From: Eledone cirrhosa
Taxonomy: Eukaryota
Assembly (NCBI GenBank): GCA_964016885.1
Contig: OZ024748.1
Location: forward strand, 42,036,001 to 42,100,000
Length of the DNA: 64,000 nucleotides
Reading direction: 5' to 3'
Shown: positions 1 to 58,866 of the stretch, one piece after another
Numbering within the stretch: position 1 is the first letter of the stretch
Layout of the letters: every line of letters begins with the position of its first letter
Position numbers and translations under genes: made by a program
Notes under the pieces: model-generated
Told to the model about the DNA's origin: nothing
Databases searched by the model: none
What the model saw: only the letters and a program-made list of their open reading frames with translations

Positions 1-2398
1 GAAATCCCCAGGAAAAGACAAAATACAAAATTTTTGGATAAATGCCTTCACAGAGTCTCATGAGCTGTTAGCCCAACTTTACAATGAAATAGTTAAGGAG
101 CCAGAAAAGATACCATCATGGCTAGTTAACGGCATTACATTCCTGCTTCCGAAGAATGATGAGTCAAACACTCCCAAAAATTACAGATCGATAACTTACT
201 TGACCACAATGTATAAAATGTTAACATCAGTCCTAACTGAATACACATATGACCACCTGATAACAAATGACCTATTTCCCATTGAGCAGAAAGGGTGTAA
301 ACGAGGCTCATATGGCTGTAAGGATCAGCTTTTGGTTAACAAAATGATACTGGAAGATTGTCATAATAGACACAAAAATCTATCAATTGCTTGGATAGAT
401 TATAAAAAAGCATTCGATAGTTTGCCACACAGTTGGCTTGAAAAATGTTTAGAGATTTTCAAAATATCCCCCGTTGTCAGGAGGTTTTTGTCATTCAGTA
501 TGAAGACATGGAAAACGACACTCCTTTTGAATAGCGAAACAAAATCACTGGAAGCCGGAGAAGTTAATATTAATTGTGGAATTTTTCAGGGTGACTCTTT
601 ATCACCGCTTTTATTCTGCATCGCACTTATACCATTAAGTAAAATGCTCAATGAAACAAAACATTGATATAAAGTCTATGACAAAACCATTAATCACTTG
701 TTCTACATGGATGACCTGAAACTATTTGCAAAAAATGATGAACAATTGCAAGGGCTATTATCTACTGTGGAGCAGTTCGGTGATGACATTAAAATGGAGT
801 TTGGACAAGATAAATGCGCCAAAGCAACGTTCACCAGAGGAAAGCTGCTGAAAAGTTCAGACATTAATCTTGATTGGGGGAATGTGATAAGAGAACTTCA
901 TCAAGAGGAAACTTACAAATATCTAGGTGTTTGTGAAGGAGACGGAATCAAGCACTCGACAATGAGGGAAAGGATAAGGAAGGAATGTTACCGCAGAGTA
1001 AGAGCAATCTTAAGAACGGAATTGAATGCAAGGAATAGGATCGATGCCATAAACATGCTTGCCATACCAGTAGTAACCTACAGTTATAATGTCATCAACT
1101 GGTCAAGCACAGAGATCCGTAGGCTCGATACAAAAATTCGAAAATTCTTAACCATGCACAGAATGCATCACCCTAAGGCAGATACAGATAGAATATATCT
1201 CCCTAGGAAAGAAGGAGGACGTGGGTTAATCCAGTTAGACATTGCGTTGAAAACTGCAACAATTGGATTATCTACATATCTAAGGGAATCACATGATTGG
1301 ATGATCAAACTCGTTTTGAAACACGAAAGCATCAAAAGATCATACTCCATTACAAAAGATGCACAAAGATACAGTAATGGACTACAAATTTCAGAAGTCC
1401 CATTTACTGCTGAAATGGAAAACACAGAAAAAGCAAAGCAGGTAAAAGTAACTGCAAAGAAAGAACTGCTACAGAAACTGGCTAAGAAATGGCAAGAAAA
1501 GCCTCTGTATGGAGAATACCCAGAACGAGCTAACAATCCTGATGTTGACAAAACTTTAACGCATCAGTGGTTGGCATCCTCTGGACTGAAATCGGAGACT
1601 GAAGGACTGATTATATCAGCACAAGATCAGTGTCTGCCAACAAAAAATTACCAAGCCAACATAATAAAAAATGGATGCAGCTCATTATGCCGTGTATGTA
1701 AAAAACAACCAGAGACCATTGACCATATAATTTCAATGTGCAGTCCTATAGCTCCAACCGAATACCTAAACAGGCATGACAGAGCTGCACAATACATACA
1801 TTGGATAATGTGTAAGCATCTTGACCTGCCCCATCAAAAGAATTGGTGGGAGCATCAACCACCTCCCATACTTGAAAAAGATCACATCTCAATCTTGTGA
1901 AACTTTAGCATCCAAACAGACCGAAAAATTGATGCAAATAGACCTGATATAATACTGAAGGACTTTAAAAAGAGGGTATGCCTGCTAATTGATATGTCCG
2001 TTCCAATAGACAAGAATGTATCTATAAAAACATTTGAAAAATTGAGCAAGTATAAGGACCTGGAGATAGAAATTGGAAAAATGTGGAAATTGAGAACTAA
2101 AACAATACCAGTGGTTGTGGGCGCTCTAGGAATGATACCTAAGGGGTCTAATGATTACTTATCGCAAATCCCAGGAAACCCTCGTATAGGAGAAATACAA
2201 AAGATAGTACTAATGGGAACTGCCCATATACTAAGGAAGATTCTGTCAATATAGATACATCACAAGTCTAAACACCTAAAGATGCATGTGTGAGTATGTA
2301 TGTTCTTTCTTGAACATGGCGGACCTTGTTGTCTCTTGAGGTCACTGGTTGTGACTTGGTGATAACTCGTATAAACATAAAGCAAGATAAATGCAGCT

Positions 2399-2399
<1 letters not shown>
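1..2399 (+). mobile_element. R4/Dong-clade non-LTR retrotransposon (family A), 3' part; RT + CCHC + restriction-like endonuclease; two in-frame stops
   Basis: ORFs 200-667, 698-1900 and 1994-2254 share one frame, broken by TGA stops. Motifs: GIFQGDSLSP, YMDD, CRVC-ETIDHIISMC, RHD, RPD..D..K..KY. The 3' UTR ends in (TAA)n at 2400-2430. Confidence 0.9.
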
Positions 2400-2428
<29 letters not shown>

Positions 2429-2431
<3 letters not shown>

Positions 2432-2839
2432 GACAGGGTGATCCACTGGCACCTATGCAAAGTAAACAATTTATCACATTCTGAGAAGTCGTATGAGCAT
2501 AAGCCAGAGTCGGTGATAGAAAACGATCAGGTGAAGGTGCTGTGGGATTTTAGGATACAGACGGACAAGATACTGGAACACAATAGACCTGACCTGGTGG
2601 TTTTGGACAAGGAAAAAAGATTGTGCCTGATTGTAGATGTAGCCTGCCCATTTAACACGAGAGTGCAAGAAAAGGAGAGGGAGAAAATTAACCGATACCA
2701 GGACTTAAAGTGGGAGGTAAAAAGGATTTGGAACTGCCATGAGGTCAAAGTGGTCCCGATTGTCATAGGCGCACTAGGTACTATCTCAAAGAGTTTCCAA
2801 GGATGGTTAAAGAAAATTAGTCCAGCCCCGCTTTTTGGA
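2429..2839 (+). mobile_element. R4/Dong family B fragment (REL domain), truncated at both ends
   Basis: Near-identical to ~7008-7418; encodes HNRPDLVV...DVACPF...KINRY. Confidence 0.85.
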
Positions 2840-2895
2840 GTTTCCACCGATCACATTGCCAGATTGGCCGAGGGCTGTGAGCGCCTAATAATAAT

Positions 2896-3539
2896 AAACA
2901 CCATATTTACAAGGAGGAGGCTAGCCCACTGTGTAGGATCTGAGGAGAGAGAGAGGAGACTGTGGCTCACATTGTATCCGAGTGTAAACACCTAGCCCAG
3001 ACTCACTATAAAGGCTGGAGACATGATGTGATGGGCAGGGTGATCCACTGGCACCTATGCAAAGTAAACAATTTACCACATTCTGAGAAGTGGTATGAGC
3101 ATAAGCCAGAGTCGGTGATAGAAAACGATCAGGTGAAGGTGCTGTGGGATTTTAGGTTACTGACGGACAAGAAACTGGAACACAATAGACCTGACCTGGT
3201 GGTTTTGGACAAAGAAAAAGGATCGTGCCTGATTGTGGATGTGGCCTGCCCATTCGACACGAGAGTGCAAGAGAAGGAGAGTGAGAAAATTAACCGATAC
3301 CAGGACTTAAAGTGGGAGGTAAAAAGGATTTGGAATGGCCATGAGGTCAAAGTGGTCCTGATTGTCATAGGCGCACTAGGTACTATCTCAAAGAGTTTCC
3401 AAGGATGGTTAAAAGGCATGCTTGCTGGGACCAGCAAGAACTCTCCGATACGTCCTGAATATCTGAGGCTACAGGTAGCGGCTTGATATTCATTTCAACA
3501 AACTTTCCAGTTAAATAACATCAATGACTGAAACTCAAA

Positions 3540-3540
<1 letters not shown>
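2896..3540 (+). mobile_element. R4/Dong family B, 5'-truncated copy with (AAT)n tail
   Basis: ORF 2962-3486 (RHD, RPD, REL motifs); matches ~6873-7554; followed by (AAT)n at 3541-3588. Confidence 0.9.
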
Positions 3541-3588
<48 letters not shown>

Positions 3589-3590
<2 letters not shown>

Positions 3591-5568
3591 TTTCTTTATT
3601 AACCACAAGGGTTTACATAAAGTAGACATTAAGGACAGTGCAGGACAATGCAGGACGGTACAAATGGGCATTTCTGCGTGTAAAAAAAACAAAAACAGAG
3701 GATGTAACAAAAATAACAATGAAAATAACAATGAAAAATTCCCCAATAGGGGGGAGACTTCGGAGGGACATTTGTGGAGAAAGCCCAGTAAAAAGCCACA
3801 ATGACCCTGACCACCAAGGCAAGTGCCCTCTCCCAGTTTTCCACCTTTAGTTTACAGATATATACTCAGAGTCGGCCCATTCACTCGGGCCATTCTTGCT
3901 TCTCTCACCCATCTTTCAACAAAATGCTGGGAAGAGAGCACTTCCTTCTCTACTCTGATTTTCCTTTTCAAATGAAATTTGAAAAAGTCAATCAGAGCAT
4001 CACCGAAGAGGTAAGTGCTCGTCTTCAGCCCTTTCAAACGTGTCCACCATACTATCTCTTTCGCCATGGCCACCAGACAGATAAAAACTGCCTGCCCTTC
4101 CCGGCTAAAGGAGGAGGGCGGGGCAATCCTCACGATAGACTCAGATGATAGCTGGATCCGTCCTAAACGCGACAGCAGGTGTTCGACATAAACCCACAAG
4201 TCAGCAATTTTCGGACACTGGACGAGTGCGTGCAGGACGGTTTCGTCGCCCTGCGCGCATCTCGGACATGCCCGGCTGACGGCACCTCCATGCCTGTAGA
4301 GTTTATCCCGAACTGGCAAGGCTCCTCGGTAGCACTGCCAGGCCAGAGATTTCTGGAAGTTGTCCATAGGCCCTGGCCCGAAAGTTCTTCCGAAGAGATT
4401 GGCTAGTTGATTTTCGTCGACGCCTAGAGTTTCCCCAAGTACGTCGTCGCTCTTCCCCTCCACTAATCCTCTATAGAACGCCGAGGTGGAGTTTCCACCG
4501 ATCACATTGCCCGATTGGTCGAGGGCTGTGAGCGCCTGAAGACATTCCAGTCTCCAGGCGCTCCCTCTCGGTCTTCGCTTGACCCAGGACTGCAGCTCCG
4601 TCAAGGAAACGAGCTGGGGAAAAACGCGTCTAGCAAACGGCGACCACACCTGATCACCGTCGAGGAAGAGGTGGAGATGTCGTAGCCTGAGCGCGTGCCT
4701 GCGCATCATCAGCCACGGCATGCCCAGCCCTCCACGTAGCGGGTGTTGACAACAGATGGACCGCCTGACCATCGGAGCACGTCCCTTCCACAAAAAGCGA
4801 AAGAGCAAACGCTCCAGCGCAGTCAGGCGAGGCTTAGGACAAGGTACGACGGTTAGGCGGTAGCAGATGACAGACGCGATGTACGCGTTAGCCACCTCCG
4901 CTCGACCTTTCAGGGATAGCTTCCTCTCCGCCCATTTCTGGGTGAGAGAAGCCACCCTGCTCGTCACCTCGTCCCAGTTTTTGTCCGTCTGGAGGTCCGG
5001 ACCGAACCAGACCCCTAGCAATTTAACCGGTCCGTCCGTCCAGCGCCCGACGACGCTGTTGGACGGCATGGACCTGCCTCTCCAGGTGCCGAGCTGCAGG
5101 CCCACTGACTTTTCCTGGTTGATCATTGCTCCTGTCACCGCTTCGTATTCTCTTAGTATAGTGCCGATCGCCTCGATGTGTTTGGCGTTCGACACCACTA
5201 CGGTGACATCGTCGGCATATGCTGACACGGATCTTCCGCATCCTAGTTCGCGCGGGACTCCCCTCAACGTCTCCAGTTTGTGCAGTAATGGCTCGAGAGT
5301 CAATACGTACAAGAGGGACGAGAGGGGACATCCTTGGCGGACCGAGCGCATGATGTTGAACGGTTCCGACAGGTGACCGTTCACTCTCACCACAGAGCAG
5401 ATGTCGCTGTGCATGGCAGCGATCCAGCCTCTGAAGATGGGCCCAAAGCCAGCCGCCTTCAGGACTGCCGCTAGGTAACGATGGTCGACCCTATCGAAAG
5501 CTTTCGACTGATCTAAATTGATCAAGGACCCACCCGTGCCAGGTTCCTTAGCTACCCTCTCTATGATG
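3589..5568 (-). mobile_element. L1/Tx1-clade LINE, 5'-truncated copy (RT C-terminal half, zf-RVT, 3' UTR)
   Basis: ORF 3852-5576: DQSKAFDRV, RQGCPLS, YADD, CPRC-ETVLHALVQC. Minus-strand AATAAA lies just before the (ATT)n tail. Paralogous to 7612-9571. Confidence 0.9.
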
Positions 5569-7553
5569 ACAAGCATTATGTCTGAGGAAATCTACCATCA
5601 CCTCCACACAAACAACTTGTTACCGGACGAACAGAAGGGAAGCCGAAAGAAGTCACGTGGTATAAAGAACCAGTTACTTATTGATAAGATGGTAATGAGG
5701 AATTGCAAGAGGAGACACACTGGTCTTGCCATGGGATGGATAGACTACAAAAAGGCATTTGACATGGTGCCTCATTCTTGGATCACCAAAAACCTGGAGA
5801 TTTTCAAGGTGGCAGATAACATCAGACAGTTGTTGGGCAAAAGTATGAAGTCCTGGGAAACAGAGTTAACATCAACTGGAGAATCCTTGGGAAGCGTGAA
5901 GATCAAGAGAGGTATCTTCCAGGGAGATAGTCTGTCCCCTCTGTTGTTTGTCCTTGCCCTGATGCCCCTGACCAGTGTACTGCGAAAAGTGAGAGCAGGA
6001 TACAGGTTGGGAAAGGGAGGGCTTACCATCAATCACCTCCTCTTCATGGACGATCTTAAGCTCTTCGAGAAGAGTGAGAAGGAGTTGGATGTGCTTGTTG
6101 ACACTGTCCGTATTTTCAGCAATGATATATGTATGCAATTTGGTATTAGTAAGTGTGGAGTCATTGTGATGAAGAGGAGTAAATTGAGTAGAAGTAATGG
6201 AATCCAGGTACCAACAGGTGAGATGATAAAGGAAATTGACTCTGAAGAAGGATACAAGTATTTGGGTGTTCTGGAGGCTGATGACATCAAGAACAAAAAA
6301 ATGAAGGAATTGATAAGAACTGAATACATTCGGAGAGTAAGGAGCGTATTAAAGTCACATTTAAACAGTAGGAATGTCATAAGTGCAGTAATTCCCGAGC
6401 TGTGTCTATTATTAGGTACAGTGCGGGAATTCTGAGATGGAATGTTGCTGAACAAAAAGAAATGGATAGGAAGACTAGGAAGCCATTGACTGTCTACAAC
6501 ATGTTCCACAAGAGGAGTGATGTCGATAGACTCTACTTAAGGAGATCTGAAGGTGGAAGAGGTCTTATCAGCATAGAGGACTGTGTTCAGATGGAGAAAA
6601 ACAACCTACACAAATACGTGACTGATAGTAAGGAGCCAATGCTCAGAACTGTACTGAAGGAGGGGACAATAGACCAGGGGATGTCCAAGGAGGAAATAAC
6701 ATCAAGGAGAAAGAGCAGCCTTCAGGCAAAATCCCTTCATAGTACCTTCTTTGAGAAAACTGAATTTAGAAATCCACAGACATGGAACTGGTTGAAAAGA
6801 GGAGACCTTAAAAAGGCTACAGAAGGAATGTTAATGGCTGCGCAGGAGCAGGCCCTCAAAACGAAGTGGTTGAAACACCATATTTACAAGGAGGAGGCTA
6901 GCTCACTGTGCAGGATCTGTGGAGAGAGAGAGGAGACTGTGGCTCACATTGTATCCGAGTGTAAACACCTAGCCCAGACTCACTATAAGGGCTGGAGACA
7001 TGATGTAATGGGCAGGGTGATCCACTGGCACCTGTGCAAAGTAAACAATTTACCACATTCTGAGAAATGGTATGAGCATAAGCCAGAGGCGGTGATGGAG
7101 AACGATCAGGTGAAGGTGCTGTGGGATTTTAGGATACAGACGGACAAGAAACTGGAACACAATAGACCTGACCTGGTGGTTGTGGACAAAGAAAAAAGAT
7201 CGTGACTGATTGTGGATGTGGCCTGCCAATTCGACACGAGAGTGCAAGAGAAGGAGAGGGAGAAAATTAACCGATACCAGGACTTAAAGTGGGAGGTAAA
7301 AAGGATTTGGAACTGCCATGAAGTCAAAGTGATCCCGATTGTCATAGGCGCACTGGGTACTATCTCAAAAAGTTTCCAGGGATGGTTAAAGAAAATTGGC
7401 TCCTTCACGCTTTTTGGAACGCTTCAAAAGCATGCTTGCTGGGAACAGCAAGAACCCTCCGATACGTCCTGAATATCTGAGGCTACAGGTAGCGGCTTGA
7501 TATTCATTTCAACAAACTTTCCAGTTAACTAACAACAATGACTGAGACTCAAA

Positions 7554-7554
<1 letters not shown>
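5565..7554 (+). mobile_element. R4/Dong family B, 5'-truncated copy (RT to REL), frameshifted
   Basis: ORFs 5518-6435, 6402-7205, 7212-7472 with GIFQGDSLSP, FMDD, CRIC-HIVSEC, RHD, RPD; (AAT)n tail at 7555-7611. Confidence 0.9.
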
Positions 7555-7612
<58 letters not shown>

Positions 7613-7854
7613 TTTTCTTTATTAACCACAAGGGTTTACATAAAGTAGACATTAAGGACAGTACAGGACAATACAGGACGATACAAATGGACATTTCTGT
7701 GTGTAAAAAAACAGAGGTTGTAATAAAATAACAAAGAAAAATTCCCCAATAGGGGGGAGACTTCCGAGGGACATTTGTGGAGAAAGCCCATTAAAAGACC
7801 ACAGTGACCCTGACCACCAGGGCAAGTGCCCTCTCCCAGTTTTCCACCTTTAAT

Positions 7855-10800
7855 TTACAGACACATACTCAGAGAAGGCCCATTCATTCGGGCCATACTT
7901 GCTTCTCTCACCCATCTTTCAACAAAATGCTGGGAAGAGAGCACTTCCCTCTCTACCCTGATTTTCCTTTTCAAATGAAATTTGAAAAAGTTAATCAGGG
8001 CATCACCGAAGAGGTAAGTGCTCGTCTTCAGCCCTTTCAAACGTGTCCACCATATTATCTCTTTCGCCATGGCCACCAGACAGATAAAAACTGCCTGCCC
8101 TTCCCGGCTAAAGGAAGAGGGCGGAGCAATCCTCACAATGGACTCAGCTGATAGCTGGATCCGTCCTACATGTGACAGCAGGTGTTCGACATAAACCCAG
8201 AAGTCAGCAATGCTCGGACACTGGACGAGTGCGTGCAGGATGGTTTCGTCGCCCTGTGCGCATCTCGGACATGCCCGGCTGACGGCACCTCCATGCCTGT
8301 AGAGTTTATCCCGAACTGGCAAAGCTCCCCGGTAGCACTGCCAGGCCAGGGATTTCTGAAAGTTGTCCATAGGCCCCGGCCCGAAAGTCCTTCCGAAGAG
8401 ATTGGCTAGTTGATTTTCGTCGACGCCTAAAGTTTCTCCAAGTACGTCGTCGCTCTTACCCTCCACTAATCCCCTATAGAACGCCAAGGTGGAGTTTCCA
8501 CCGATCACATTGCCCGATTGGTCGAGGGCTGTGAGCGCCTGAAGACATTCCAGTCTCCAAGCGCTCCCTCTCGGTCTTCGCTTGACCCAGGACTGCAGCT
8601 CCGTCAAGGAGACGAGCTGGGGAAAAACGTGTCTTGCAAACGGCGACCACACCTGATCACCATCGAGGAAGAGGTGGAGATGTCGTAGCCTGAGCGCGTG
8701 TCTGCGCATCATCAGCCACGGCATGCCCAGCCCTCCACGTAGCGGGTGTTGACAGCAGATGGACCGCCTGACCATCGGAGCGCGTCCCTTCCACAAGAAG
8801 CGAAAGAGCAAACGCTCCAGCGCAGTCAGGCGGGGCTTAGGACAAGGTACGACGGTCAGGCGGTAGTAGATGACGGATGCGATGTATGCATTCGCCACCT
8901 CCGCTCGACCTTTCAGGGATAGCTTCCTCTCGGCCCATTTCTGGGTGAGAGAAGCCACCCTGCTCGTCACCTCGTCCCAGTTTTTGTCCGTCTGGAGGTC
9001 TGGACCGAACCAGACCCCTAGCAATTTAACCGGTCCGTCCGTCCAGCGCCCGACGACGCTGTTGGACGGCATGGACCTGCCTCTCCAGGTGCCGAGCTGC
9101 AGGCCCACTGACTTTTCCTGGTTGATCATTGCTCCTGTCACCGCTTCGTATTCTCTTAGTGTAGTGCCGATCGCCTCGATGTGTTTGGCGTTCGACACCA
9201 CTACGGTGACATCGTCGGCATATGCTGACACGGATCTTCCGCATCCTAGTTCGCGCGGGACCCCCCTCAATGTCTCCAGTTTGTGCAGTAATGGCTCGAG
9301 AGTCAATACGTACAATAGGGACGAGAGGGGACATCCTTGGCGGACCGAGCGCATGATGTTGAACGGTTCCGAAAGGTGACCGTTCACTCTCACTACAGAG
9401 TAGATGTCGCTGTGCATGGCAGCGATCCAGCCTCTGAAGACGGGCCCAAAGCCAGCCGCCCTCAGGACTGCCGTTAGGTAACGATGGTCGACCCTATCGA
9501 AGGCTTTCGACTGATCTAAATTGATCAAAGACCCACCCGTGCCAGGTTCCCTAGCTACCCTCTCTACGATGTATCGCATGAGGTGGAGGTTGTCGTGGAT
9601 GGATCTGTCGGGAATGGCGCATGTCTGTGCCTCTCTCACCAGACCACCAACGACAAGCACCAACCTCTTTGCTAGCACCTTGGCCAAAATCTTGAACTCT
9701 GTGTTTAGCAGAGTTATGGGCCTAAAATTATCTATGTTATCCCCCTTGTTCGGATCCTTTCTCAGCAGCGCCACCGCTCCTCGGCTCACAGAGCTGGGAA
9801 TTCTCCCGTTCTGTTGCCAGTTGCAGTAGACGTCCGCCAAGAGGCCTCCGAACAAGTTTGGCATTTGTACGTAAAGTTCATAGGGCAGACCATCCAAACC
9901 AGGCGATTTACCCCTTGTGCAACTAGTCATTGCATCCCGTACTTCAGCGGTTGTTATCGGCTTTTCGCAACACTCCGCCTCAGTGGCCGAAAGCCGCGGC
10001 AGTCCGTCGAGGTAGACACTAAAGTCCATCCCTCGATCCGGCCCGCCACTGCCCCCGAACAGTTGAGCGAAGTGTCGCTGAAAAGCTTCACACATTTACC
10101 CGGGATCGAGTAGCATGCGCCCGTCGTGGTCCACCAAAGACCGGATCGTGGCTTTGTTGCCACGACGCGCCTCCGCCACTCGGGCCCATTGAACGGCTTT
10201 CGTCCCCTCGTGTCTGAGAGCACGCACCCTAGCTCTGACAACGCAGCCTTCGTGCTTTGCATTGAAGAATTGGTCAAGGGCCAATTTCGCCGCAAGTACG
10301 TCGGTCGCGATGCCTTTGCTAAGCGCCTCATCTAATTTTCTAACTAATTCTCCCTCTGCTCTATTTTTCTCTATTGCTAAAGCCTTACTAAACCTAATGG
10401 ACTCTATTCTAATTGCTCTTTTCAGAGCAAACCACCACTTGTTGTTGACGATGGCCCCCGTCAACGCCCGCTTAACTAGTTCGCTAATCCGGTCTCTGTA
10501 GGCCTTGGGCGCTGGTAAGGACGCGTTTAGCTTCCAGTAGCCGGGTCCTCGTCTATGAAGCCTATCTAAGTCAAGCACACAGATCACGAATTTGTGGTCC
10601 GTGTAGCTGACTATCTTGAATTGTGGACAGCCTATGCTAGACCTATCTATTTCCGTCGACAAAATACTCTATCTAGATATGATCTGGATGACCCTATGCG
10701 ATTTGTCCATGTCCACATTGGTACATTCTGGAAATCCATTCGGTACCTGTCAGACAGTTCAAAACGTCTGAGCAGGTTGGTGAGACTCTTGCACCCTCCT

Positions 10801-11276
10801 TCCCTATCCACTAATCCCACACAATCCCAGCGTGCATCTAAGATCCCGTTCCAGTCGCCCACTAACACTAAAGAGCGGGACGTTCCAAGAAAGGTCTCCA
10901 GACGCCGGAAGAAATCAGGCCGCCCTGCTCCTGTCGGGGCATAGACGGCCACTAACCTGAAAGCTTGCCCGTCTCCGCTGGTCACGTCCAGCATCACCAA
11001 CTTACCTTCTGGGTCCAGGAAGATGGCCCGTATGGCAAGATCCAAACCTCTCCGAAAAAGCACAGCAACTCCTCCCCCCGATCCCGGACGGCTGGGAGAT
11101 GCGTACACATCGTAGCCGCCGAAGATCGGTGCGAAGGCCCGTGCTTCGGAGATTCTGGTCTCGCTGATGGCCACTACATCTATGTTTAGTGACCTGAGGT
11201 CGTTGAGCAGGTGGCCCTGCTTCCATGACGACCCCAAGCCACGCGCATTTATGCTGCCTATTCTGAGTGAGGTCAT
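7855..11276 (-). pseudogene. Tx1 ORF2 (APE endonuclease + reverse transcriptase + zf-RVT), one frameshift and one stop
   Basis: 10647-11276: SINARG, ISET, VYAP, GDWN, SYLDR (APE). 10096-10662: YTDH, GPGYWKLN. 7855-10095: KSPGLDG, FRPITLLN, YADD. Frameshift near 10655; TAA at 10096-10098. Confidence 0.9.
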
Positions 11277-11310
11277 GTTGAAAAGGAGTGGAAAAGATGG
11301 GAAAGACCAC

Positions 11311-13273
11311 TTACCTTACTTCTCGTAGGGGAAGGACGGTTTTTCCATCCTTTTCACTGCTTGTGGCCTCCTCAGGAAGGATGTCCTTATAAATCCTCCT
11401 GGAGAGTGCTTGTCGGAAGTCTCCGATGTCTTTGGGGAATTTTTGTTTTAGTGTCATGTACGTTTTCTGTGTGATGCGAGTGATTTGTATGTGTGGAGGT
11501 GGTGTGAATTTTGGGGTTGTTGTGTAGTCTTTTTCTGTGATGCTGGTGTTGCGTTGGATGTAGTGTAATAATTGCTTGTTGTTCAAATTTAATGCTGTGT
11601 AGTGTGTATCGTTTTGGTTGTTTTGTTTTGTTTGCGTTTGTTGTGGGTTTGTTTCTGTTTCGCATTTTGGTGACTTTTGTGGTGTAGGTGATGGTGGTGT
11701 TGGGGTTAATGATGGTGATGGTGTTCGTGTTTGGGTTGATGGGGTTGGTGATGCTGGTGTGGATGGTGGCATATCTGTCCTAACTTTTTTGTTTCTTAGT
11801 TTATTTGTTTCCCTCTGTATTTTGTTTTTGGAGGGGGAAGGAAGAGAATTTTTTCTTTTTTGGTTTCTTTTTTTTTTTCCGGATATCGTTTCCCACTCCT
11901 CGTCGTCACAATCTGTCTCCAGTTGTGATAGGCCGGGGAGTGGAAAATCCTCCACAGCCGTTAGTTTTGGTTGTGGTGTGGTGGATGGTGTAGGCGCTGG
12001 TGCTAGTTCTGAAGCGTTGGGTGGTGGTGGTGTTGGTTTTGCTGGTGGTGGTAGTGGTGTTGGTTTTGCTACTGTTGCTGGGGTTGTTGCTGTTATAGTT
12101 GCTTCTGTTGTTGCTGCTACAGTTGTTGCTGCCATCTCTGCTACTGGTGGTGTTGATGTTTGTGTCACTGGGGTGGGTAGGAGAGGTGGCCTCAACCTTT
12201 TAGCCTGAGGGCAGAAAGCCCTTAGGTGGGTTCCTTCACCACAAACGACACACCTAGGTCTTCTGCCCTCGACAATTACCGTGAGGTGGCCGCCGTCAGT
12301 GAGGTCTATTACCTCTGGGATCTCCTCAATGCTTTTTTGGTCCGCTTGGATCAGGAGCTCCATCCCAGATCCGGACCAGTTTTCCTGCTTTTCTTTTGCT
12401 ACTGCTATTATTTTCGTGTTGGCTTCGATGCCGGCGAGGACAGCCGCTATTAGCCAGGGAATTTCGATGGCCGGTGGAACGTGGGTCACCCTGATCTTTA
12501 CGAGTCTCTGGCCACAATAGCTTGGGACGAGTGTGAAGTCGTCACTTCTTAATGGGGCCATGGAGTGTTCTCTAGCCTCCTCTGGTGTTTCAAAGAACAC
12601 GTCCACGGTTCCATACTTTTGCCCACGTCTGATGTGGGTTTTTCTTGCCCACACATGTCCCAAAGCTTTTTGGATTTGGGACTCGGATGCCCGTTCCACT
12701 CGGCGCGATTTTACATTTATTGTTCTATACGACACGGTGCACAGGCGCCGATGCTCCATTTTATTAGGTGGGGGGGGGTCTAACCCTGTACCCATCTTTC
12801 TTTACCATTTGTTTGGCATTTTCTAAATCTTCTTGAGTTACCGTGAACGCTTCGAATTGTTTTGCTACGATGGCGAAACTGAGGGTCGGTTTTATAATGT
12901 CATTGTTGTTGTTGTTGCTATCGTTAATATTAATTTTATTTTCAGTTGTGGTGGTGGTGACGTCAGTCGTCTTTGGTGGGGAAGAGTCCATTTTGCTTGA
13001 TTTCATTTCGACATCACGAGTTAATTTATTTTTTTCTTCTTTTGTTTCTGTTGTCGCGGTGGTGGTGGTGGTGGTGGTGGAGGCTTTAACACCTGCAGTC
13101 ATTGGTAATGGCGGGAAATGAATGTCTGCCTGAGACAAATTTAAAATATTGCTACTGCTTATATTTTTTTTTGTGTTGGCAAACGTAGTAACATTTACAA
13201 TGGTGGTGTCGGTGTGAGGTGTTATTTTGTGAGGAAGGCTTTCAGCTGCTTCGTGCAGAGGTGAAGTAGCCAT
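11311..13273 (-). pseudogene. Tx1 ORF1 (gag-like, CX2CX4HX4C knuckle), split at a poly-C run
   Basis: ORF 11311-12795 contains CVVCGEGTHLRAFC; upstream ORF 12764-13273 joins in frame if one C is removed from the homopolymer at ~12770-12778. Confidence 0.75.
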
Positions 13274-13483
13274 TTTTTTTTCAAAGAAATTTTTTGATAA
13301 TAATAAAAGTTAAAATTTTGGGCACAAGGCCCCAATCTTTTTAGGTGTCCTTTTCGGAAAACAATGTATGTGTGCTTATAAACAGTTAACAATAAAATTT
13401 TCCATAAATGGCAATTTTTAAACAAACGGAAATAACAAACCTTTGCGGAGCTCACGATAATACGATTTCCTACGTAGGTCGCC

Positions 13484-13516
<33 letters not shown>

Positions 13517-13518
<2 letters not shown>

Positions 13519-14180
13519 AATTGTGTACAACTCGTCAAAGGTGCATGTGTAGTACATAGAATAATGTACAAATGTTAGGAAAATAAACAGTGCATGAGTC
13601 ATGATATACACACGTGTGCGTGTGTATGGAGGGAGGGATATCAGGTGTAGTGTTGGTGAATTTCAAGAAGCATGGATGTTTTAAAGGATGCAGTATCTCG
13701 GCAGCTAACAACTGATGCTGGTAGTTTGTTCCATGCTTCAGCAACTCTGAGCATGAAAAAAATGTTTCCGAAAGTCATGGGAACTGTGCTGTTTTCTGAC
13801 TTTGTGGGCATGTCCATGTGTGTTAGACACATGGAAATCAAAAAGGTACTCAGGGTTGTTGTTGGCAAGATGGTTAATAATTTTGCAGGTGTTTACCAAG
13901 TCAGTTGCCAGATGTCCGAGCTTCAATGTATCCATGCCCAAGGAAGCAAGGCGTTCCGATATGGTAGATGCCTGGTGGAGGGTATTCGCTTGGTTGCATA
14001 TCTCTGAACAGTTTCCAGGAGGTCAATGTTCTGAGTGATGCAAATTCCAAGTGTGGCCGCACCATAGTTATATACAGCTTTAAATATTTGTAGTAAGGTT
14101 GCTTGGATGCATCCATAGGCGGTATGCCGGTTGAGCATTCTATGTTCCTGAGCAGAGTATGATAATATGGAAAACGAAGA
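13517..14180 (-). mobile_element. CR1-clade LINE 3' remnant with (ATT)n tail
   Basis: Fragments LYITMVRPHLEFA, DLLETVQRYATKRIP, RKHFF..RVAEAWNKLP resemble the CR1 ORF2 C-terminus; the 3' UTR runs into the 13484-13516 tract. Confidence 0.75.
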
Positions 14181-14544
14181 ATCAGTGATGCATCGGAACA
14201 CAATTTATTACGTATTACGGTGAGCCAGAGAAACAATTGTAATACATAATAAATTGTGTTCCGATGCATCATCGGCCTTCTTCAGAAACACTAAACTATG
14301 ATTGCTACATATACATATATGTATGTAGCAACAGGAAATAACATCGGTGACTTTCGTAAACTGTGTATATATATAAATATATATATATATGTGAGTCCCA
14401 GGTTCAATCGGGGGTAACCACAGTAAGTAAGGTACTCAATACAGGGTTTTCCTGATGATTTCTTTTGAATGAAACAGTTCGACTTGTCTAGAAGCGATTT
14501 CTATATTAAACATGATATATATGCATACTTATATTATATATATA

Positions 14545-20424: not shown

Positions 20425-23219
20425 AATGGTGACCCGACGTAAAAACACCAACTAAAAAATGGTAACCTCCGAATACGCAGAGAAAAAAAAAAAAGAAATT
20501 TTAGTCCCTCGTGTCGTCGTCTTCAACCAAGCTTTCGTTTTGAAATCGCCATCGTACTTGCTCGGTGCTACATCTTACTTCAGCTATTCATGGTACCACC
20601 ACGTGTGCATATAATTTTGAAAATACAGCTAATTTTTTCCTTTCAAATGTGTTGTCGTTGGCTGGTTCACGAAAGTTAAACCACGTGTGCGGCAGTTGAA
20701 AAAGAAAAAAATTTCGCTCAGAGACTACTGTTTATCATGAGCAATTCTTCGTTATCGACATATTCAGGTGATGCAAAGTTGTGGTTTGCACAACTGGATT
20801 CGTATTTTGCTGCCCACGGCGTTCAAGCAGCACAACAAAGGTTACACGTGCTCATAAGTGGAATTCCTGTATCGCCCGCAACATCAGTGAAAGACATAAT
20901 CACAGATCCCCCACATGGCATAACTTATGAAATACTAAAGGCAGAAGTGCTCAGACGGAACAGCCGTTCGTCTGAGAGCAAATTTCGTTCCTTGTTGGAG
21001 GAGAAAAACCTGGGAGATAGAACCTCGTCTCAGTTTTTACGGCGCATCCGGGAACTGAGCAACTCAACAGCAGAGGACAACTCTTTCGTGAAACAATTCA
21101 TCTTCTCCCGTTTGCCAACAAATGTGCAGACCATATTGGCAAATATTGTCGACACCAGTTCTCTGGACCAAATTGCAGCCTCGGCGGATCGCAGAATGAA
21201 ATTTTCTCGAGTGCCTACTTCGGCAGATCCACTCATCGCTTCTTCTATCTTTAAAACACAGCCTGTTTCACCTCGTGAGGACTCTCTGCTAAGGGCCATT
21301 GACACGTTAACTCGTCAAGTGGCTAAACTGTGTCGGGAACGAGCACCATCCAGGTGGCGTCCACGGAATCGGTCTCCTTCTCTTCATCGTCGCGCCAACC
21401 TCCCCGCCAACAACTCGTCTTTGTGTTGATATCACGTGCGTTTTCGTGAAAAGGCGAAAGATTGTATTCAGCCCTGCTCTTTCGAGACCTCGGAAAACTA
21501 AAATTGGAGAGTCTGGGCACGCCAGACCTCTCCCTCATTAATTCTCCTTATTGTGTTTTCTTTATCAGAGATCGAGTTTCAAACAAATCATTTATGGTCG
21601 ACACAGGATTTAGTTGCAGTATTTGGCCTCTTCGGTTCAGCTCTACCAAGCCAAATTTTTCCGGCATTTCCTTGTATGCAGTAAACCAGTCTCCTATAAA
21701 AACTTATGGACAAATATCTTTATCATTGGACCTAGCTTTGCGTCGAGATTTCAAATGGATTTTCGTCGTTGCGGACCTACCTCATCCTATTCTCGGTGCT
21801 GATTTTTTACACCACTATTCATTGTTGGTAGATGTCAGGAGACAGAAACTTGTGGATGCTACCACATCCTTATCTACGCCTGCTCGTGGTTCTACTGCTA
21901 CTGCCATAAGTCCCGCGTGTTTCATAACTGCCTCTGGAAACCAGTTTCATTCTCTTCTTGCCTCGTTTCCCGAGTTAACTGACATCTCCTTTAAACCGCA
22001 CCAAGTAATCCACTCGACTCGACATTTTATTACAACAACTGCTCCGCCTGTTTTCTCTCATCCACGCAGGCTGGCTCCAGACAGGGATGAGTTCGAAAAC
22101 CAGGGATGAGTTCGAACACATGCTTCAGCTTGGTCTTATACGACCGTCAACCAGCCCATGGGCATCTCCGCTTCATTTGGTTCGTAAGGGTGAGGCGGAT
22201 TTTAGACCTGTGGGAGATTATAGACGACTTAATGCTATCACAACACCTGATCGTTATCCTTTACCAAATTTACAGGATTGTTCATCCGTTCTGCATGGAT
22301 GCAAGATATTTTCTAAAATAGATCTGGTACGCGCTTACCATCAAATACCCATGCATCCAGAAGACATACCAAAAACAGCTGTGACCACCCCTTTTGGTTC
22401 GTTTGAATTTTTGTCCATGCCTTTTGGTTTGCGGAATGCCTCTAGTACGTTCGAGCGTTTTATCGATGAAGTCACGCGTGGATTGGATTTCGTGTTTGCT
22501 TACGTAGATGATCTCCTGATAGCCAGTGATTCAGCTGAGCACCATCATCAACATCTTTCCCAGTTATTTCAGCGTCTTCGATCCTACCAAGTCAGAATCA
22601 ACCCAGCTAAGTGTTTTTTGGCACAGACACACTGGAATTCCTTGGACATCTTATAGATTCAGAAGGCATTCGACCTTTCCCATCTAAGGTAGAGGCGATT
22701 CAGCTTATAGCACCACCAACATCCTTGAAACAATTACGCCATTTCTTGGGATTAATTAACTTTTATCGTCGTTTTATTCCTATCTGTGAGGACAAGTTGT
22801 TCCCCTTGACACAGTTTTTAAAGGCTGCAAAAAAAAAGATGCTCCTATTTCACTTTCTGCCGATGCCTTGTAGTCTTTTGAATCCGTCAAATCTGAGCTA
22901 GCTGAGGTTTCCTTCCTTGCCCATCCTGTTGCAAACGCGAGACTTTCCTTATCTATTGATGCATCCGATAATGCTGTTGGTGCAGTTTTGCAACATGCGA
23001 TCGATCACCAGGTTCAACCACTGGCGTTTTTCTCACGCCAACTAAAACCAGCAGAGCAACGATACAGTACTTTTGACAGAGAGCTTCTAGCGATTTATCT
23101 TGCTGTGAGACATTTCCACCATCTTCTTGAAGGTCGGGAATTCACGGAATTCACAGACCATAAACCACTCACATTCTTCAAACCAAATCCTACAGGTACT
23201 CTCCGAGAGCGTATAGGCA

Positions 23220-23647
23220 TTTATAATGTTAGTATCAGTGTATATATATTATTAAGAATGACAATAAATGCAGGTGAGTGTTGTGACATGGTTTTACTTC
23301 ACAGAAGTCAAATAAATTAATAGAAATAATGTTTACCACATGTTGATGGTCAGTTGGTCACAACTCCCAGACTGGAGTGTGTAGAGAAGAACAGAAATCT
23401 TCTCTTGGTAAGGTTCAAGTGTTTCTTTAGACTGCCGGTGCAGGAAGTGAGAGAGATGCCTTGATGTTCTCAAATATATAGTCCCCAGGGGGACGCAACT
23501 CCATTTAGTACATGGATCTGCCACTGGGAATCGCGACCGTCACAAAGGGAGGCAACTCCTATACGTATCTGCCACTGGGAGTCGCGACCGTCACAAAGGG
23601 ACGCAACTCCTATACGTGCTGAGTTACAGCCGTAAGGGGCCGCTACA
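23220..23647 (-). repeat. 3' LTR of element B (with an internal 51-bp duplication)
   Basis: Direct repeat of 27737-28115. Confidence 0.9.
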
Positions 23648-26600
23648 GTACCCTCCTCCAGACGATAGGCGAAAAGCCCGACGGTAACTGTAGCGAACCC
23701 ACAAGCATGGGCTCCCAGTACAGGCATGAAATATTAACGCAAATGTACAGGCATGAAATAGTAACGGAAAGGTACATATGTTCATAGTAATACAATAAAG
23801 AGAAAAACAAAAAAGGCTCCAGTGGCCAGTTCACATGAAAACAGTTTGGCAGAGTTTTTTTGGCCAGTGGACTCTTCGACCGGAACGGGTCGTGATCTTG
23901 CATGTAGGTGAAGGTGGGGCAGAAGGAGCAGGTGTATGCACAAGAGAGAAAGATTGGAGTATTTGTGGATCGGGTGTATGAGCGTCATTGTATGCCCTTT
24001 TTAGTCTATCTACCGAAATTGTCTCTCTGGACCCCATAATGTCTACAGTGAAATGTTTGTCAGTAGTGCTAACACACGGTAGGGTCCAGAATACGGTTGT
24101 GTGAGAGGTGGAGTAACCGCATCGTTTCTGACGAATGTGTCCACGAGGCAATATCACTCGGAACTGCAGCTTTAATAGTTTGTTTCCTAGTATTCATGGG
24201 ATGTAAGTCCTGAAAATAGGAGCGCAAACGAGATACGTAGGAAACAGGGTCCTGGAAAGAAAGATCAGCAGGGGAAAGCATTTGCCCAGGCAACGCTAGA
24301 GGAGCACCATACAGTAATTCGGCCGGGGAGAACCCAAGGTCCTCCTTTATTGATGACCGAATTCCTAACAACACAATAGGAAGGTACTCGCTCCAACGTT
24401 GAGAGTCTGGATAGGCGCGAAGAGCGGCCTTTAATTGGCGGTGGAATCGTTCCACCATTCCGTTTGAAGCAGGATGATAAGCTGTGTCCGAATCCGTTGA
24501 GTACCAATAATCTTTGTCAGCTCAGAGAAAAGATGAGACTCAAATTGTCTACTACGGTCTGTGGTGACTGTAGTTGGTACCCCAAAGCGGGTAATCCACC
24601 CTGATACCAGGGCACGCGCTACAGTCTCAGCAGTAATATCTTGTAAGGGGTTGGCTTCAGCCCATCGCGGAAAACGATCGATACAGGTCAAGAGGTTCGA
24701 ATATCCACTACTGAATGGCCAAGGTCCAACGATATCAATGTGGATGTGTTGAAACCGAGCATCTGGAGTACTGAAAGTACCAAGTGGAGTCCGGATGTGT
24801 CTGTGGATTTTAGATCTCTGACACTGTGTGCAGGAACGGCACCAGACAGTAATTTCTCGCCTCATATTGGGCCAGAAAAATCTAGCCGTTATAAGCTTTA
24901 CTGTGGCAGAAATTCCTGGGTGAGAAATGCTGTGCAAAGCAAGGAACACAATTCGACGGTGAGTCTCAGGAACAAGTGGTCGTGGTGAATCCGCAGATAC
25001 ATCACATAGAATCTGCCTGATGGTGGTCGACAAGGGCAGATATTTGAAGATGCAAGTCGCAAACTCGGCAGAAAGAGTATCCAACGATTGCAGTGCAGGT
25101 TGGTCTGCAGCTAAACGACTTAAGTCGATCTCCTGGGATGTCGAGATGGAGCTGATTGGCAAACGTGACAATGCGTCTGCAGCTATGTTAAGTGAGCCAG
25201 TAATGTGCTGGATATCACTTGTAAATTGCGAAACGTAGTCCAGGTGCCTTGTCTCTCTGGGCGAATATCTGTCGGATTTAGCCCTCAAAGCGAAGATCAG
25301 AGGTTTGTGGTCGGTTAAAACAGTAAAATTTCTCCCCTCAAGAATATGAGAGAAATGTTTCACCGACAGATATATGGCTAATAATTCCCGCCCAAACGTG
25401 CTGTAACGCGTTTCTGCTGGTTTCAGCTTTCTTGAGAAAAGGTTGTTGGTTTCCAGCGTTGTACTGCTGTAAAACTGCTCCCACAGCGGTATCAGATGCA
25501 TCAACACAAAGCGAAAGCTTGGCCTCTGGTACCGGGTGGGCTAGCAAAGATGAACTAGCGAGTGCTGTCTTGGCAGTCTAGAAGTCTTGAAGCTGTCCTT
25601 CTGTCAAGGAAATATCCTCATTCTTCTTACGACGATTTTTCAAAATGTCAGTAAGTGAAGATAGCAAATTAGCACAATGAGGAACGAAACGCCTATAGAA
25701 ATTGATTAGACATAAGAAGTGACGCAACTGGTGAAGTGTAGTAGGCGGAGGTAAATCCTGTATGGCTTGAACTCTCTGGGGAAGCGGCCTAATACCTTCG
25801 GCGTCGATGAGGTGGCCTAAAAAATTTAGCGAAGTGGAACCGAAAACACACTTTGCGGGATTCACACGAACGCGGTAATCCTGAAGTCGCCGAAATAAAA
25901 GATGCATGTGGCGCATATGCTCTTCTGGAGAGGAACTAGCGACGAGAAAATCGTCTATGTATGCATAAACGAAGTCCAGACCACGAGTGACTTCGTCTAT
26001 GAACCGCTGAAAAGTGCTAGCGGCGTTCCTGAGTCCGAAAGGCATAGTAAAAAATTCGAAGGATCCGAAAAGAGTTGTGATCGCCGTTTTCGGAATATTC
26101 TCCTTCCTGACCGGAATTTGGTGGTAGGCTCGCACTAAATCTAGTTTTGAGAAAATCTTACACCCCTACAATGACGATACGAAATCCTGGAGATGGGGGA
26201 TGGGATACCTATCCGGGACGGTCATAGCATTTAACCTCCTATAATCCCCAGTGGGTCTCCAGTCGCCAGAAGTCTTGGGCACCATGTGTAACGGTGAAGC
26301 CCAAGGACTCGTAGATGGGCGAATAATGCCAAGCTGCAGCATATGGTCGAACTCGGACCGTGCTGCCTTTAATTTGTCCGCCGGTAAACGGCGTGGACGC
26401 GAAAACACTGGAGCACCGGTGGTGGAAATGAAATGTTCAGTTGAGTGTGTTGGCTCAGTGACTCGAAAATTTCCATCGGTGAGCTCCGGGAAAGAACCTA
26501 ACAACGAATGGAAGGCGTCTCCAGCGGCAGAGATGAATAATAAGGGGCTGACTGTTGGAGCATTGGCTTTCCGGCTACGAATTGAAAAACCGGTGATGTC

Positions 26601-27736
26601 ATCCACCAGGCGTTGGCCACGGACGTCCGCAGTCAAAGAGAAGTTGTGAAGGAAATCCGCTCCTAAGATAGGGTATGACAAATCGGCAACCGTAAAAATC
26701 CATTTAAAATCCCTACGAAGATTTAGGAATTTGAGACGAAGCGAGATTTGTCCGTACGTCTTTATAGACGAGTGATTAACGGCCTGCAGAGTAACGGATG
26801 ACTCTACGAGGGTATCTTTCAGGCAATGGACCCGACATAAGGTCCTTAATGAAGAAATGGCGGTTTGGTGGCTTTATGTTGAGGTCAACTGCCCCCATCA
26901 GCGGACCTCTTTGGCGTTTCCCGCCTTATGAAACGAGCAAGGTTGCATGCAGTGGTTCGCGCTCTCGGCAAATCGCTCATGGTACCAGCATTAAGATGAA
27001 GCTGGTGATTTGGGGCAGCGTCTAAAAGAGTGAGATCTCCTGCGCGAGCGCAAACGGGCACCACACCAGACCTTCATCTTCTGGAGCTCCAGGGTGAGTT
27101 CCTGAATGGACTTCTGCATCGCCATAATGGCTGAGTGAGATGCCATTGTTATACCGTAGGTAATCTGCAAAAAAATCGTCTCCATTTGGAAAAATGTCTC
27201 CAACACAAGGGAAAAGGAAAACAAAATCGCTTGTTTTTCTCTGTCAAACAACTGGACAGGAAAAAGAATGCATCCGAGACAACATGTAAAGGAGCGACTA
27301 ACCGAGCGATGTCATTAACAAGGTGTAGGCAGGGAATTTAAAACTAAAACCAACATGGCGGACGATTTCGCGCCCAAAACACTATTGATAGAGAAGAAAG
27401 CCGCCATCTTGTCATCCTCAAAAATGTTAGCCAGAGAAAAGAAAAGAAGAAAAAACATTCATACAATTGTTGTTTCGCTAGGAAACTAGCAGCAATATTA
27501 TGTTGTTCTTTTTTTGTGTTTGTGTGTAAATAAATGGAATGTTCGCTTTGCACATATAAGGAGTTTGACCGTTAAAATGTTACAGGTAAAGATGCTGAAA
27601 TCAGTAAAATACAGCCAGATCGGAATGAACCGTGTTGTTCTGTATTAAATGTTTTTTCTTTCTCTTTTTTCTTTTATATATACACATGGTACCGTTTCCC
27701 ATTCTTTTTTTTTTTTTTTAAACGTCAGGTCACCAA

Positions 27737-28115
27737 TTTAGAATGTTAGTATCAGTGTATATATATATTATTAAGAATGACAATAAATGCAGGTGAGTGT
27801 TGTGACATGGTTTTACTTCACAGAAGTCAAATAAATTAATAGAAATAATGTTTACCACATGTTGATGGTCAGTTGGTCACAACTCCCAGACTGGAGTGTG
27901 TAGAGAAGAACAGAAATCTTCTCTTGGTAAGGTTCAAGTGTTTCTTTAGGCTGCCGGTGCAGGAAGTGAGAGAGATGCCTTGATGTTCTCAAATATATAG
28001 TCCCCAGGGGGACGCAACTCCATTTAGTACATGGATCTGCCACTGGGAGTCGCGACCGTCACAAAGGGACGCAACTCCTATACGTGCTGAGTTACAGCCG
28101 TAAGGGGCCGCTACA
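27737..28115 (-). repeat. 5' LTR of element B
   Basis: Minus strand reads TGTAGC...TTCTAAA, followed by the PBS. Confidence 0.9.

Positions 28116-58861: not shown

Positions 58862-58866
<5 letters not shown>
57637..58866 (-). mobile_element. RTE-like LINE reverse transcriptase fragment embedded in (TA)n
   Basis: ORF 57886-58866 (QNGFR, KAFDSV, GVLQGDTLAPYLF, FADD, LLYGSETW) plus 57637-57882 after one stop. Confidence 0.9.

Follow-up and report, generated by a model that had tools for sequence, protein, structure and literature searches.

Dong-like and Tx1-like LINEs share (AAT)n tracts in opposite orientations and form mixed arrays

The window, the whole stretch of 64,000 nucleotides analyzed here, opens with a compact array of LINE pieces. 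Self-comparison and a repeat scan resolve positions 1-13516 into four Dong-like pieces, all on the plus strand, and three Tx1-like pieces, all on the minus strand, joined at (AAT)n with no intervening unique DNA, exactly the order and polarity that a sequence-only reading had described. The pieces and joints are as follows.

1..2400, plus strand: DongA, 5'-truncated, R4/Dong-like, with RT, CCHC and restriction-like endonuclease motifs
2401..2430, plus strand: (AAT)10 tract, DongA tail and DongB 5' flank
2431..2839, plus strand: DongB piece, 5'-truncated, 3' end lost, 92.4% to 7010-7418
2836..2886, minus strand: Tx1 piece of 51 bp, 96% to 4487-4537 and 8490-8540
2887..2895, plus strand: (AAT)3 tract, head-to-head joint
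2896..3540, plus strand: DongB 3' piece, 5'-truncated, 95.2% to 6873-7554
3541..3588, plus strand: (AAT)16 tract, tail-to-tail joint
3589..5568, minus strand: Tx1 of a young subfamily, 5'-truncated, matching the L049 copy exactly over its last 450 nt
5569..7554, plus strand: DongB, 5'-truncated, frameshifted, head-to-head with Tx1
7555..7611, plus strand: (AAT)19 tract, tail-to-tail joint
7612..13483, minus strand: full-length Tx1 of 5.87 kb, with ORF1 and ORF2
13484..13516, plus strand: (AAT)11 tract, Tx1 5' flank and also tail of the older LINE on the right
13517..14140, minus strand: 3' end of an older LINE, presumably CR1/L2-like, with homology mapped as far as 14140

DongA starts 459 bases upstream of the window and carries in-frame stops at 665-667 and 1898-1900. 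Farther upstream, (AAT)5, a 355-bp DongA 3' piece and (AAT)7 lie at G000:C8:42,035,150-42,035,541, such that the whole array spans ≈14.4 kb and comprises five Dong and three Tx1 pieces, with 71 AAT units in seven tracts. The full-length Tx1 encodes a CCHC knuckle in ORF1 (≈12211-12252) and an APE, an RT and a C-terminal zinc-binding motif in ORF2, with AATAAA near the 3' end of the element; both ORFs are disrupted by frameshifts or stops. The segment at 2431..2886, where DongB and Tx1 share a 4-nt word, probably represents what is left of a DongB/Tx1 pair joined tail to tail, after loss of ≈1.07 kb from its middle. The head-to-head Tx1/DongB joint at 5568/5569 also lacks a tract and has a 2-nt shared word, and both tract-less joints are probably later deletions at short shared words. 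Positions 13517-64000 harbor just one Dong or Tx1 copy, an 88-bp Tx1-like 3' end at 61590, and the array is thus not a chance assemblage.

The names Dong and Tx1 denote clade assignments made by domain layout rather than from a tree with named reference elements, and among 120 homologues listed for each kind, none is named Dong or R4 in the Dong list and none Tx1 in the Tx1 list. RT domains were found in both kinds of element and an APE domain in Tx1 only. An intact 1216-aa copy of DongA is available at L161:1994-5644, where one long ORF encodes a non-LTR RT (PF00078, E=6e-29); the Pfam domain search found no APE (PF03372) in the Dong protein, R2 proteins are the sole matches in a PDB search, and the alignment with R2 chains extends as far as residue 1162. 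The motifs CRVC..H..SMC, RHD and RPD..D..K in this protein (P0001) correspond to a C-terminal CCHC and a predicted restriction-like endonuclease. The N-terminal region yields a four-helix model (pLDDT 89.5) with Sap1, Zeste, R2 residues 144-215, TRF and ISWI SANT as top structure matches (Z 5.0-5.9, rmsd 3.1-5.3, 67-78 aligned residues, with an unrelated protein also at Z 5.6); Pfam returned no Myb match in this protein. DongA and DongB are 40-56% alike in the main protein blocks, and Dong here has a (TAA)n target and tail, as in the R4/Dong clade. Dong elements, described as usual in insects, molluscs and cnidarians, have one ORF, an RT, a restriction-like endonuclease and a (TAA)n target (PMC7998251, PMC3812793), and our families share these features with the R4-clade Dongs of Bombyx, Anopheles, Biomphalaria and Darwinula; insertion of Dong on TAA is already known. 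The clade is also reported to have a Myb/SANT-like domain at the N terminus and no zinc fingers (PMC7998251), and such a domain may be present here. Unlike the Dong elements described in these sources, two families with at least 9,900 3' ends here share a target and are interleaved with an APE element; mixed arrays with APE elements do not figure in the accounts of Dong in PMC7998251 and PMC3812793.

Tx1 has two ORFs, the second of which combines an N-terminal APE (PF03372) and an RT (PF00078) with a C-terminal zinc motif (PF13966). Its RT is nearer the L1 group (human L1 ORF2, E=2e-43) than R2 (E=5e-21), and ORF1 (P0242) carries a C-x2-C-x4-H-x4-C knuckle at residues 184-197, a gag-like CCHC knuckle in ORF1 being a feature of the Tx1 clade. 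Tx1-type APE elements specific for microsatellites have been described, including Kibi on (TC)n, Koshi on (TTC)n and crocodilian families on (TTCC)n/(TTTC)n (PMC4494074). The present family resembles these by description; it differs in its target, (ATT)n, which is absent from the list in PMC4494074, in its host, likely an octopod, and in having a target common to a restriction-like-endonuclease element. A metagenome scan with the C-terminal part of Tx1 confirmed 0 of 184 pattern matches, and Rfam searches of six loci that contain a 5' end of Dong or Tx1 found no ribozyme, the matches all being at chance level and below gathering scores. A SINE considered as a Tx1 passenger gave a mixed result.

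The array in the window is one of many such arrays in this genome. Exact genome-wide counts place 2,438 DongA and 7,491 DongB 3' ends, along with 4,729 3' ends and 2,202 5' ends of Tx1, on AAT tracts, compared with ≈83,000 tracts of at least six units. An ATT tract is found at the Tx1 5' end in 29/29 other copies chosen by similarity alone, all 53 distinct 5' flanks end in the phase ATTATT, and copies of one Tx1 5' motif have at least six units in 24/27 cases (C1 0-88.5 Mb, lists compared by hand); Tx1 3' flanks are AAT-rich in 68/72. Among 5'-truncated ends, a class that includes internal deletions, Dong ends follow at least three AAT in 99/127 cases and ATT in 1/127, and Tx1 ends follow ATT in 13/30 and AAT in none, with 17/30 lacking an ATT tract. 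Under the rule of Kojima, by which a target-specific family has the same sequence in >20% of flanks (PMC4494074), both kinds qualify (29/29 and 68/72 for Tx1, 99/127 for truncated Dong). In the first 62.86 Mb of chromosome C1, which together with 30-locus samples provides the adjacency figures, a Tx1 end lies no more than 8 kb from 68/142 Dong ends, compared with 5.5 expected, ≈12-fold above uniform placement, and all 68 of these neighbors are antiparallel. These data bear out the earlier proposals that Tx1 copies carry (ATT)n at their 5' flanks, that both kinds use the same repeat on complementary strands, and that they adjoin more often than at random. Marks no more than 8 kb apart share AAT polarity 160 to 3 (exceptions 3/163 pairs; L025, L068, L170), and those >100 kb apart do so in 37/79. 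Multi-element clusters, of which there are 59 on 63 Mb of C1, contain 176/242 3' ends versus ≈4% expected; arrays are scattered along chromosomes, some of which hold Dong/Tx1 copies at higher density than others.

Next to elements, tracts remain long, consistent with renewal of the target. Median length is 12-13 units after Dong, with or without a following Tx1, 11 units at Tx1 3' ends, and 13 units at those Tx1 5' ends that neither Tx1 nor the SINE follows, relative to 7.5 units for free tracts (36 tracts, 79 evenly spaced 10-kb stretches). In these stretches, 14 occupied and 36 free tracts differ (p=0.006), in a small sample where the occupied tracts come from few stretches (5/79 hold any), and 9/19 tracts of at least 10 units touch an element. 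DongB subfamilies differ in the triplets that open the tail (28/35 versus 0/55), which thus travel with the element. The idea that each insertion renews the target holds to the extent that flanking tracts are not shortened; we infer that repeat would be gained at insertion from the RNA tail of the element, target duplication and slippage, although the gain could in part stem from insertion into tracts that were long beforehand, or from slippage afterwards. The short ATT tail of the older LINE at 13517..14140 was the likely starting point of the array itself. The CR1/L2-like label of this LINE is a tentative one based on motifs; the LINE has 4,095 candidates, best paralogues at 91-92% and degraded reading frames, and 19 paralogues have 0-8 AAT units in the tail (median 2).

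We consider it probable that Dong and Tx1 stack on (AAT)n in opposite orientations through strand-specific priming and through splitting and renewal of the tract. The priming strand would be (ATT)n for Dong and (AAT)n for Tx1, their opposite orientations likely arising because the restriction-like and APE endonucleases nick opposite DNA strands. An insertion would split the tract and leave a long tract on both sides, which likely accounts for mixed stacks. Because much of the pool of long tracts consists of element flanks, new copies of any family land beside old ones, the rich getting richer, and order inside an array is random.

The sequence-only reading had instead described an alternating array in which each insertion renews the target of the other kind. 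As a special partnership, this would have Dong and Tx1 each drawn to the tails of the other, and alternating for that reason. The right half of the array in the window does alternate, and an exact Dong end directly adjoins 21/100 Tx1 3' ends, compared with 11.9 expected from random tracts (12/29 in another sample), but enrichment of Tx1 after Tx1 is equal or greater (10/100 versus 2.6). Dong-Tx1, Dong-Dong and Tx1-Tx1 neighbors number 53, 48 and 16 of 117, as in shuffles; the mixed class compares with 54.8 ± 5.1 after label shuffling, with the same result at 8 and 15 kb, and long runs of Dong only exist. Label shuffles largely refute partner-specific mutualism, which we regard as very unlikely; an insertion instead supplies fresh target to all elements that seek AAT, its own family among them. 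Contact between an element end and another element is seen in 31/100 cases versus 14.6 for a random tract of at least six units (39/58 versus 7/22 in a further comparison), an ≈2-fold excess of contact that we ascribe to a probable preference for long tracts. It is unlikely, if less so, that no repeat is gained at all and that elements simply use up rare very long tracts or ordinary slippage lengthens tracts later. Microsatellites slip, free tracts of 21 and 25 units exist, and 3/68 SINE tails reach at least seven units; against this, tracts between two elements are as long as those after a lone element (medians 13 versus 12), the first tail triplets are subfamily-linked, and this array holds 71 units, compared with a median of two in the family that likely seeded it.

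That a Dong-Tx1 composite moved as one unit by 3' transduction, or that the array is a local duplication, would explain why 2896-5568 aligns with 6873-9571 through both elements at 93%. This reading is highly improbable, since the two pairs in the window differ by 5.0% in Dong and 6.3% in Tx1, their Tx1 copies belong to distinct subfamilies that both have nearer relatives at other sites, truncation points vary by locus, and matching Dong and Tx1 trees were not seen; over 22 tail-to-tail DongB/Tx1 pairs the distances are uncorrelated (Mantel rho -0.19, p=0.86), and neighbors are thus of independent origin, not co-inherited. We give no more credence to the notion that the tracts are by-products, as slippage tails or read-through flanks, of untargeted elements gathering in tolerant regions: the uneven chromosomal density and a DongB tail that is partly element-borne speak for it, but tracts of the expected strand also precede 5'-truncated copies, in whose RNA a 5' flank could not be included, and the polarity is nearly invariant. 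Misassembly is likewise exceedingly improbable. In four public runs, whose fragmented contigs may come from other individuals, only fragments match 1-14500, no contig spans the array, and the joint at 2840-2895 has no contig cover (2844-2891 bare), which leaves this particular array unsupported by independent reads; yet in-array copies differ by 4-8%, unlike collapsed or doubled reads, and the same layout recurs in the C1 clusters and in extended loci. Among the public-run rows listed, 20/24 hold part of window 2300-6000, and no RNA run does so among the matches listed. Twin priming of one tract by Dong and Tx1 RNAs as the source of joint 5568/5569 was set aside, as few such joints were seen (the window, L336 and L032 among 41 rows; L070) and deletion accounts for the short shared words.

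TRAS and SART belong to the R1 clade, both with an APE. They insert into one simple repeat, (TTAGG)n, in opposite orientations on different strands (PMC7265360), and Dong-Tx1 appears to work like this pair without being a member of it. In contrast to TRAS/SART, the endonuclease types differ here, one partner having no APE, and instead of a telomeric, host-supplied repeat the target is a dispersed one that the elements themselves probably renew. R1 and R2 both reside in 28S rDNA. Keno (Tx1, APE) and Utopia (restriction-like) both occupy U2 snRNA genes (PMC4640811), and as in these two pairs an APE and a restriction-like element converge here on one target. The identical 3' flanks of Keno and Utopia imply the same orientation within the gene, opposite to the arrangement found here, where the target is moreover a self-similar repeat that survives on both sides of an insertion. 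A Tx1 family on ATT/AAT or mixed Dong-Tx1 arrays were not found in the literature searched, which covers sources other than Repbase reports, Kojima and Fujiwara 2004, Xiong and Eickbush 1993, and supplements, any of which may list one. In Octopus vulgaris, the repeat annotation of PMC13282606, in which we found no target or orientation analysis of these elements, counts both kinds as active in recent times, Dong-R4 with 1,129 insertions from 5 families and L1-Tx1 with 421 insertions from 13 families.

A broader reading, which we advance tentatively and consider somewhat doubtful, is that a dispersed microsatellite niche is built and maintained by its own parasites: restriction-like and APE elements would split the strands of (AAT)n and make about half of the long AAT tracts in the genome, the Tx1 lineage having come to this growing pool from an (ATCT)n-type target still used by sister families. 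A 3-bp repeat with a different endonuclease fold on each strand, together with a Tx1 sister family that uses a 4-bp repeat, would form a compact specificity-switching system. For retrotransposons with a specific target, the host as a rule sets the limit by offering sites in fixed number; in this genome the target outlasts each insertion and probably increases with it, and thousands of natural replicates are available for linking specificity, choice of strand and the birth of microsatellites. In genomes of this kind, long AAT markers and estimates of repeat age call for caution, being tied to LINE ends.

The array at the start of the window is built from three LINE families, named by domain layout. 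The single 1216-aa protein of an intact DongA copy carries RT and CCHC motifs as well as those of a restriction-like endonuclease; its solved relatives are R2 proteins only, and its N-terminal domain is predicted to adopt a four-helix fold, with weak Myb/SANT-type matches. DongB is a second R4/Dong-like family, 40–56% like DongA in the main blocks and with similar 5′ ends. The Tx1-like element harbors two ORFs: ORF1 carries a CCHC knuckle, and ORF2 combines APE, RT and a zinc motif. Human L1 is nearer to it than R2 is. The closest named homologue among the matches listed (68%) is from Argonauta hians, which points to a probable octopod host. The element order described in the sequence-only reading is present in the window as follows.

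Elements and tracts of the array, from the sequence
1–2400, +, DongA
(AAT)10, between DongA 1–2400 and DongB 2431–2839
2431–2839, DongB piece, fused to a 51-bp Tx1 piece
(AAT)3, between the 51-bp Tx1 piece and DongB 2896–3540
2896–3540, DongB
(AAT)16, between DongB 2896–3540 and Tx1 3589–5568
3589–5568, −, truncated Tx1
5569–7554, DongB, without a tract at its joint with Tx1 3589–5568
(AAT)19, between DongB 5569–7554 and Tx1 7612–13483
7612–13483, −, full-length Tx1
(AAT)11, directly right of Tx1 7612–13483

The first DongA extends 459 bases upstream of the window and is preceded by (AAT)7, a DongA 3′ piece and (AAT)5, which brings the whole array to ≈14.4 kb, with five Dong and three Tx1 pieces, seven tracts and 71 AAT units; every Dong or Tx1 copy in the window array is truncated or broken. 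The DongB/Tx1 fusion at 2839/2836 and the Tx1/DongB fusion at 5568/5569 have four and two letters, respectively, common to both elements, a pattern that later deletions would leave. Neither fusion is supported or contradicted by public contigs.

Both element types use the AAT repeat, as had been proposed from the window, and do so genome-wide. Exact matching, which diverged ends escape so that all counts are lower bounds, retrieves at least 2438 DongA ends with (AAT)6, 7491 DongB ends with tail, 4729 Tx1 3′ ends with (AAT)6 and 2202 Tx1 5′ ends with (AAT)6, in a genome with 83,321 (443,461 − 360,140) pure AAT runs of ≥6 units. A tract is found at the Tx1 5′ end in 29/29 other loci with copies picked by similarity alone, and 24 of 27 copies of one Tx1 5′ motif on chromosome C1 have ≥6 units (lists matched by hand). 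The phase ATTATT closes 53/53 distinct Tx1 5′ flanks, and 3′ flanks are AAT-rich in 68 of 72 Tx1 cases. Truncated 5′ ends cannot carry their own flank along; in this class, which also takes in internal deletions and reference gaps, Dong is preceded by AAT in 99/127 cases and by ATT in one (1/127), and Tx1 by ATT in 13/30 and by AAT in none (0/30). In target-primed reverse transcription, the established mechanism, the Dong sense tail (TAA)n would prime on the ATT strand and the Tx1 sense tail (ATT)n on the AAT strand; the tail sequences thus suggest nicks on opposite strands.

Adjacency was analyzed on C1 0–62.86 Mb, the stretch common to all mark lists (100 Tx1 3′, 49 DongA, 93 DongB and 56 Tx1 5′ marks). 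Here, a Tx1 end lies within 8 kb of 68/142 Dong ends, against 5.5 expected if uniform, and all 68 neighbors are antiparallel (68/68), in agreement with the opposite orientation noted in the window. Polarity is common to neighboring marks ≤8 kb apart by 160 to 3, and the same in 37/79 of those >100 kb apart. In total, 59 multi-element clusters take in 176 of 242 3′ ends, and extended loci contain gap-free runs of 10 to 20 kb. Polarity exceptions occur at loci L025, L068 and L170. In the window, a short Tx1-like 3′ end (83–85% alike) adjoins a degenerate AAT run at 61590–61677.

The sequence-only reading had further described Dong and Tx1 as alternating, each renewing the other's target. Neither alternation nor mutual preference holds: mixed neighbors number 53/117 versus 54.8 ± 5.1 in shuffles, and Tx1 lies beside Tx1 above expectation as well, with 100 Tx1 3′ ends abutting DongA 7, DongB 14 and another Tx1 10 times, where the shares of tracts genome-wide would give 2.9, 9.0 and 2.6. 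Across 22 DongB/Tx1 pairs joined tail to tail, shared descent of the two halves was not found (rho −0.19, p = 0.86); the Tx1 halves of the window's two DongB/Tx1 pairs are from different subfamilies. Dong/Tx1 arrays therefore arise by independent insertions without fixed order.

Long tracts beside elements could reflect gain at insertion, choice of tracts that were already long, or later slippage. Tracts after Dong have a median of 12 to 13 units with or without Tx1 next, those at Tx1 3′ flanks 11 and most at Tx1 5′ flanks 13; free tracts have 7.5 (n = 36) in 79 evenly spaced 10-kb stretches, a small and clumped sample in which Dong or Tx1 adjoins 9/19 tracts of ≥10 and 8/13 of ≥12 units. The first DongB tail triplets track subfamily (28/35 versus 0/55), so at least those triplets arrive with the RNA. 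To its right, the array abuts an older CR1/L2-like LINE at that element's 3′ end (13517–14140, −); the 19 best paralogues of this LINE have 0 to 8 units at the tail (median 2) and none has Dong or Tx1 there, versus 71 units now at the array copy. These data suggest tract gain at insertion. By our derivation, were every tract open to insertion, the fraction of element ends in contact with another element would equal the share of occupied tracts. The former is 60–67% (18/30; 39/58), above the 32% (7/22) for tracts of ≥6 units and in line with the 47–62% for tracts of ≥10–12 units, a match that would follow if the elements favored long tracts, as they may do. Of the proposal that each insertion renews the other's target, renewal is likely given the tract medians; a partner-specific form of it is not supported by the shuffles.

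Dong on (TAA)n is known, molluscs included (PMC7998251, PMC3812793), and (TC)n, (TTC)n, (TTCC)n and (TTTC)n are known targets of Tx1 families (PMC4494074). Opposite orientation in one repeat resembles TRAS/SART (PMC7265360), and an APE and restriction-like pair on one target resembles the convergence of Keno/Utopia (PMC4640811). Octopus vulgaris is listed with active Dong-R4 and L1-Tx1, target analysis being absent from the passages found (PMC13282606). The combination of Dong and Tx1, inserted opposite ways in one AAT repeat, was not found in the parts of the literature searched, a scope that excludes Repbase and Kojima and Fujiwara 2004. Sequence words of window 2300–6000 occur in runs X1–X20, labelled as 17 organisms from 16 studies; with contigs compared from organisms A and B, this leaves occurrence of the families in several species as no more than a lead.

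Some Tx1 and Dong ends lie in (AAG/TTC)n or compound AAT–AAG tracts (L014, L049, L059, L271, L274, L276, L035 and L066); (TTC)n is the target of Koshi (PMC4494074). Copies of distant Tx1 families (L169, L193 and L140; ≈70% like the window's Tx1) keep the 3′-end motif and end in ATCT/TATC-like repeats (four ends, three loci), and are likely a sister group with a tetranucleotide target. DongA copies at L273, L072 and L094 are 5′-truncated at one base, 3858 of the reference copy, which could reflect a hotspot for truncation or else a short derivative moving on its own. A Dong subfamily has ≈35–45 extra 5′ bases directly after the tract (L034, L234, L287, L338, L072 and L107), with no Rfam match in four scanned loci.

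An abundant SINE-like element ends in ATT and carries a 3′ word similar to that at the end of Tx1 (L091, L081, L020 and L039; 68 ends, L122–L200). Its tails are short in 57/60 copies of the evenly spaced sample, but in loci selected for elements 11/16 long-tailed pieces are flanked by ATT tracts on either side, in Tx1 polarity. At L244 and L325, SINE 3′ ends are inserted within Tx1 copies, where short ATT-like words occur. Elsewhere in the window are broken LTR-retrotransposon pol pieces on both strands (RT, RNase H and integrase; 20680–29557), a cluster of minisatellite arrays with periods of 20 to 60 bp (39647–50872) and an RT plus DUF6451 frame (57886–58902, −), likely another non-LTR element.
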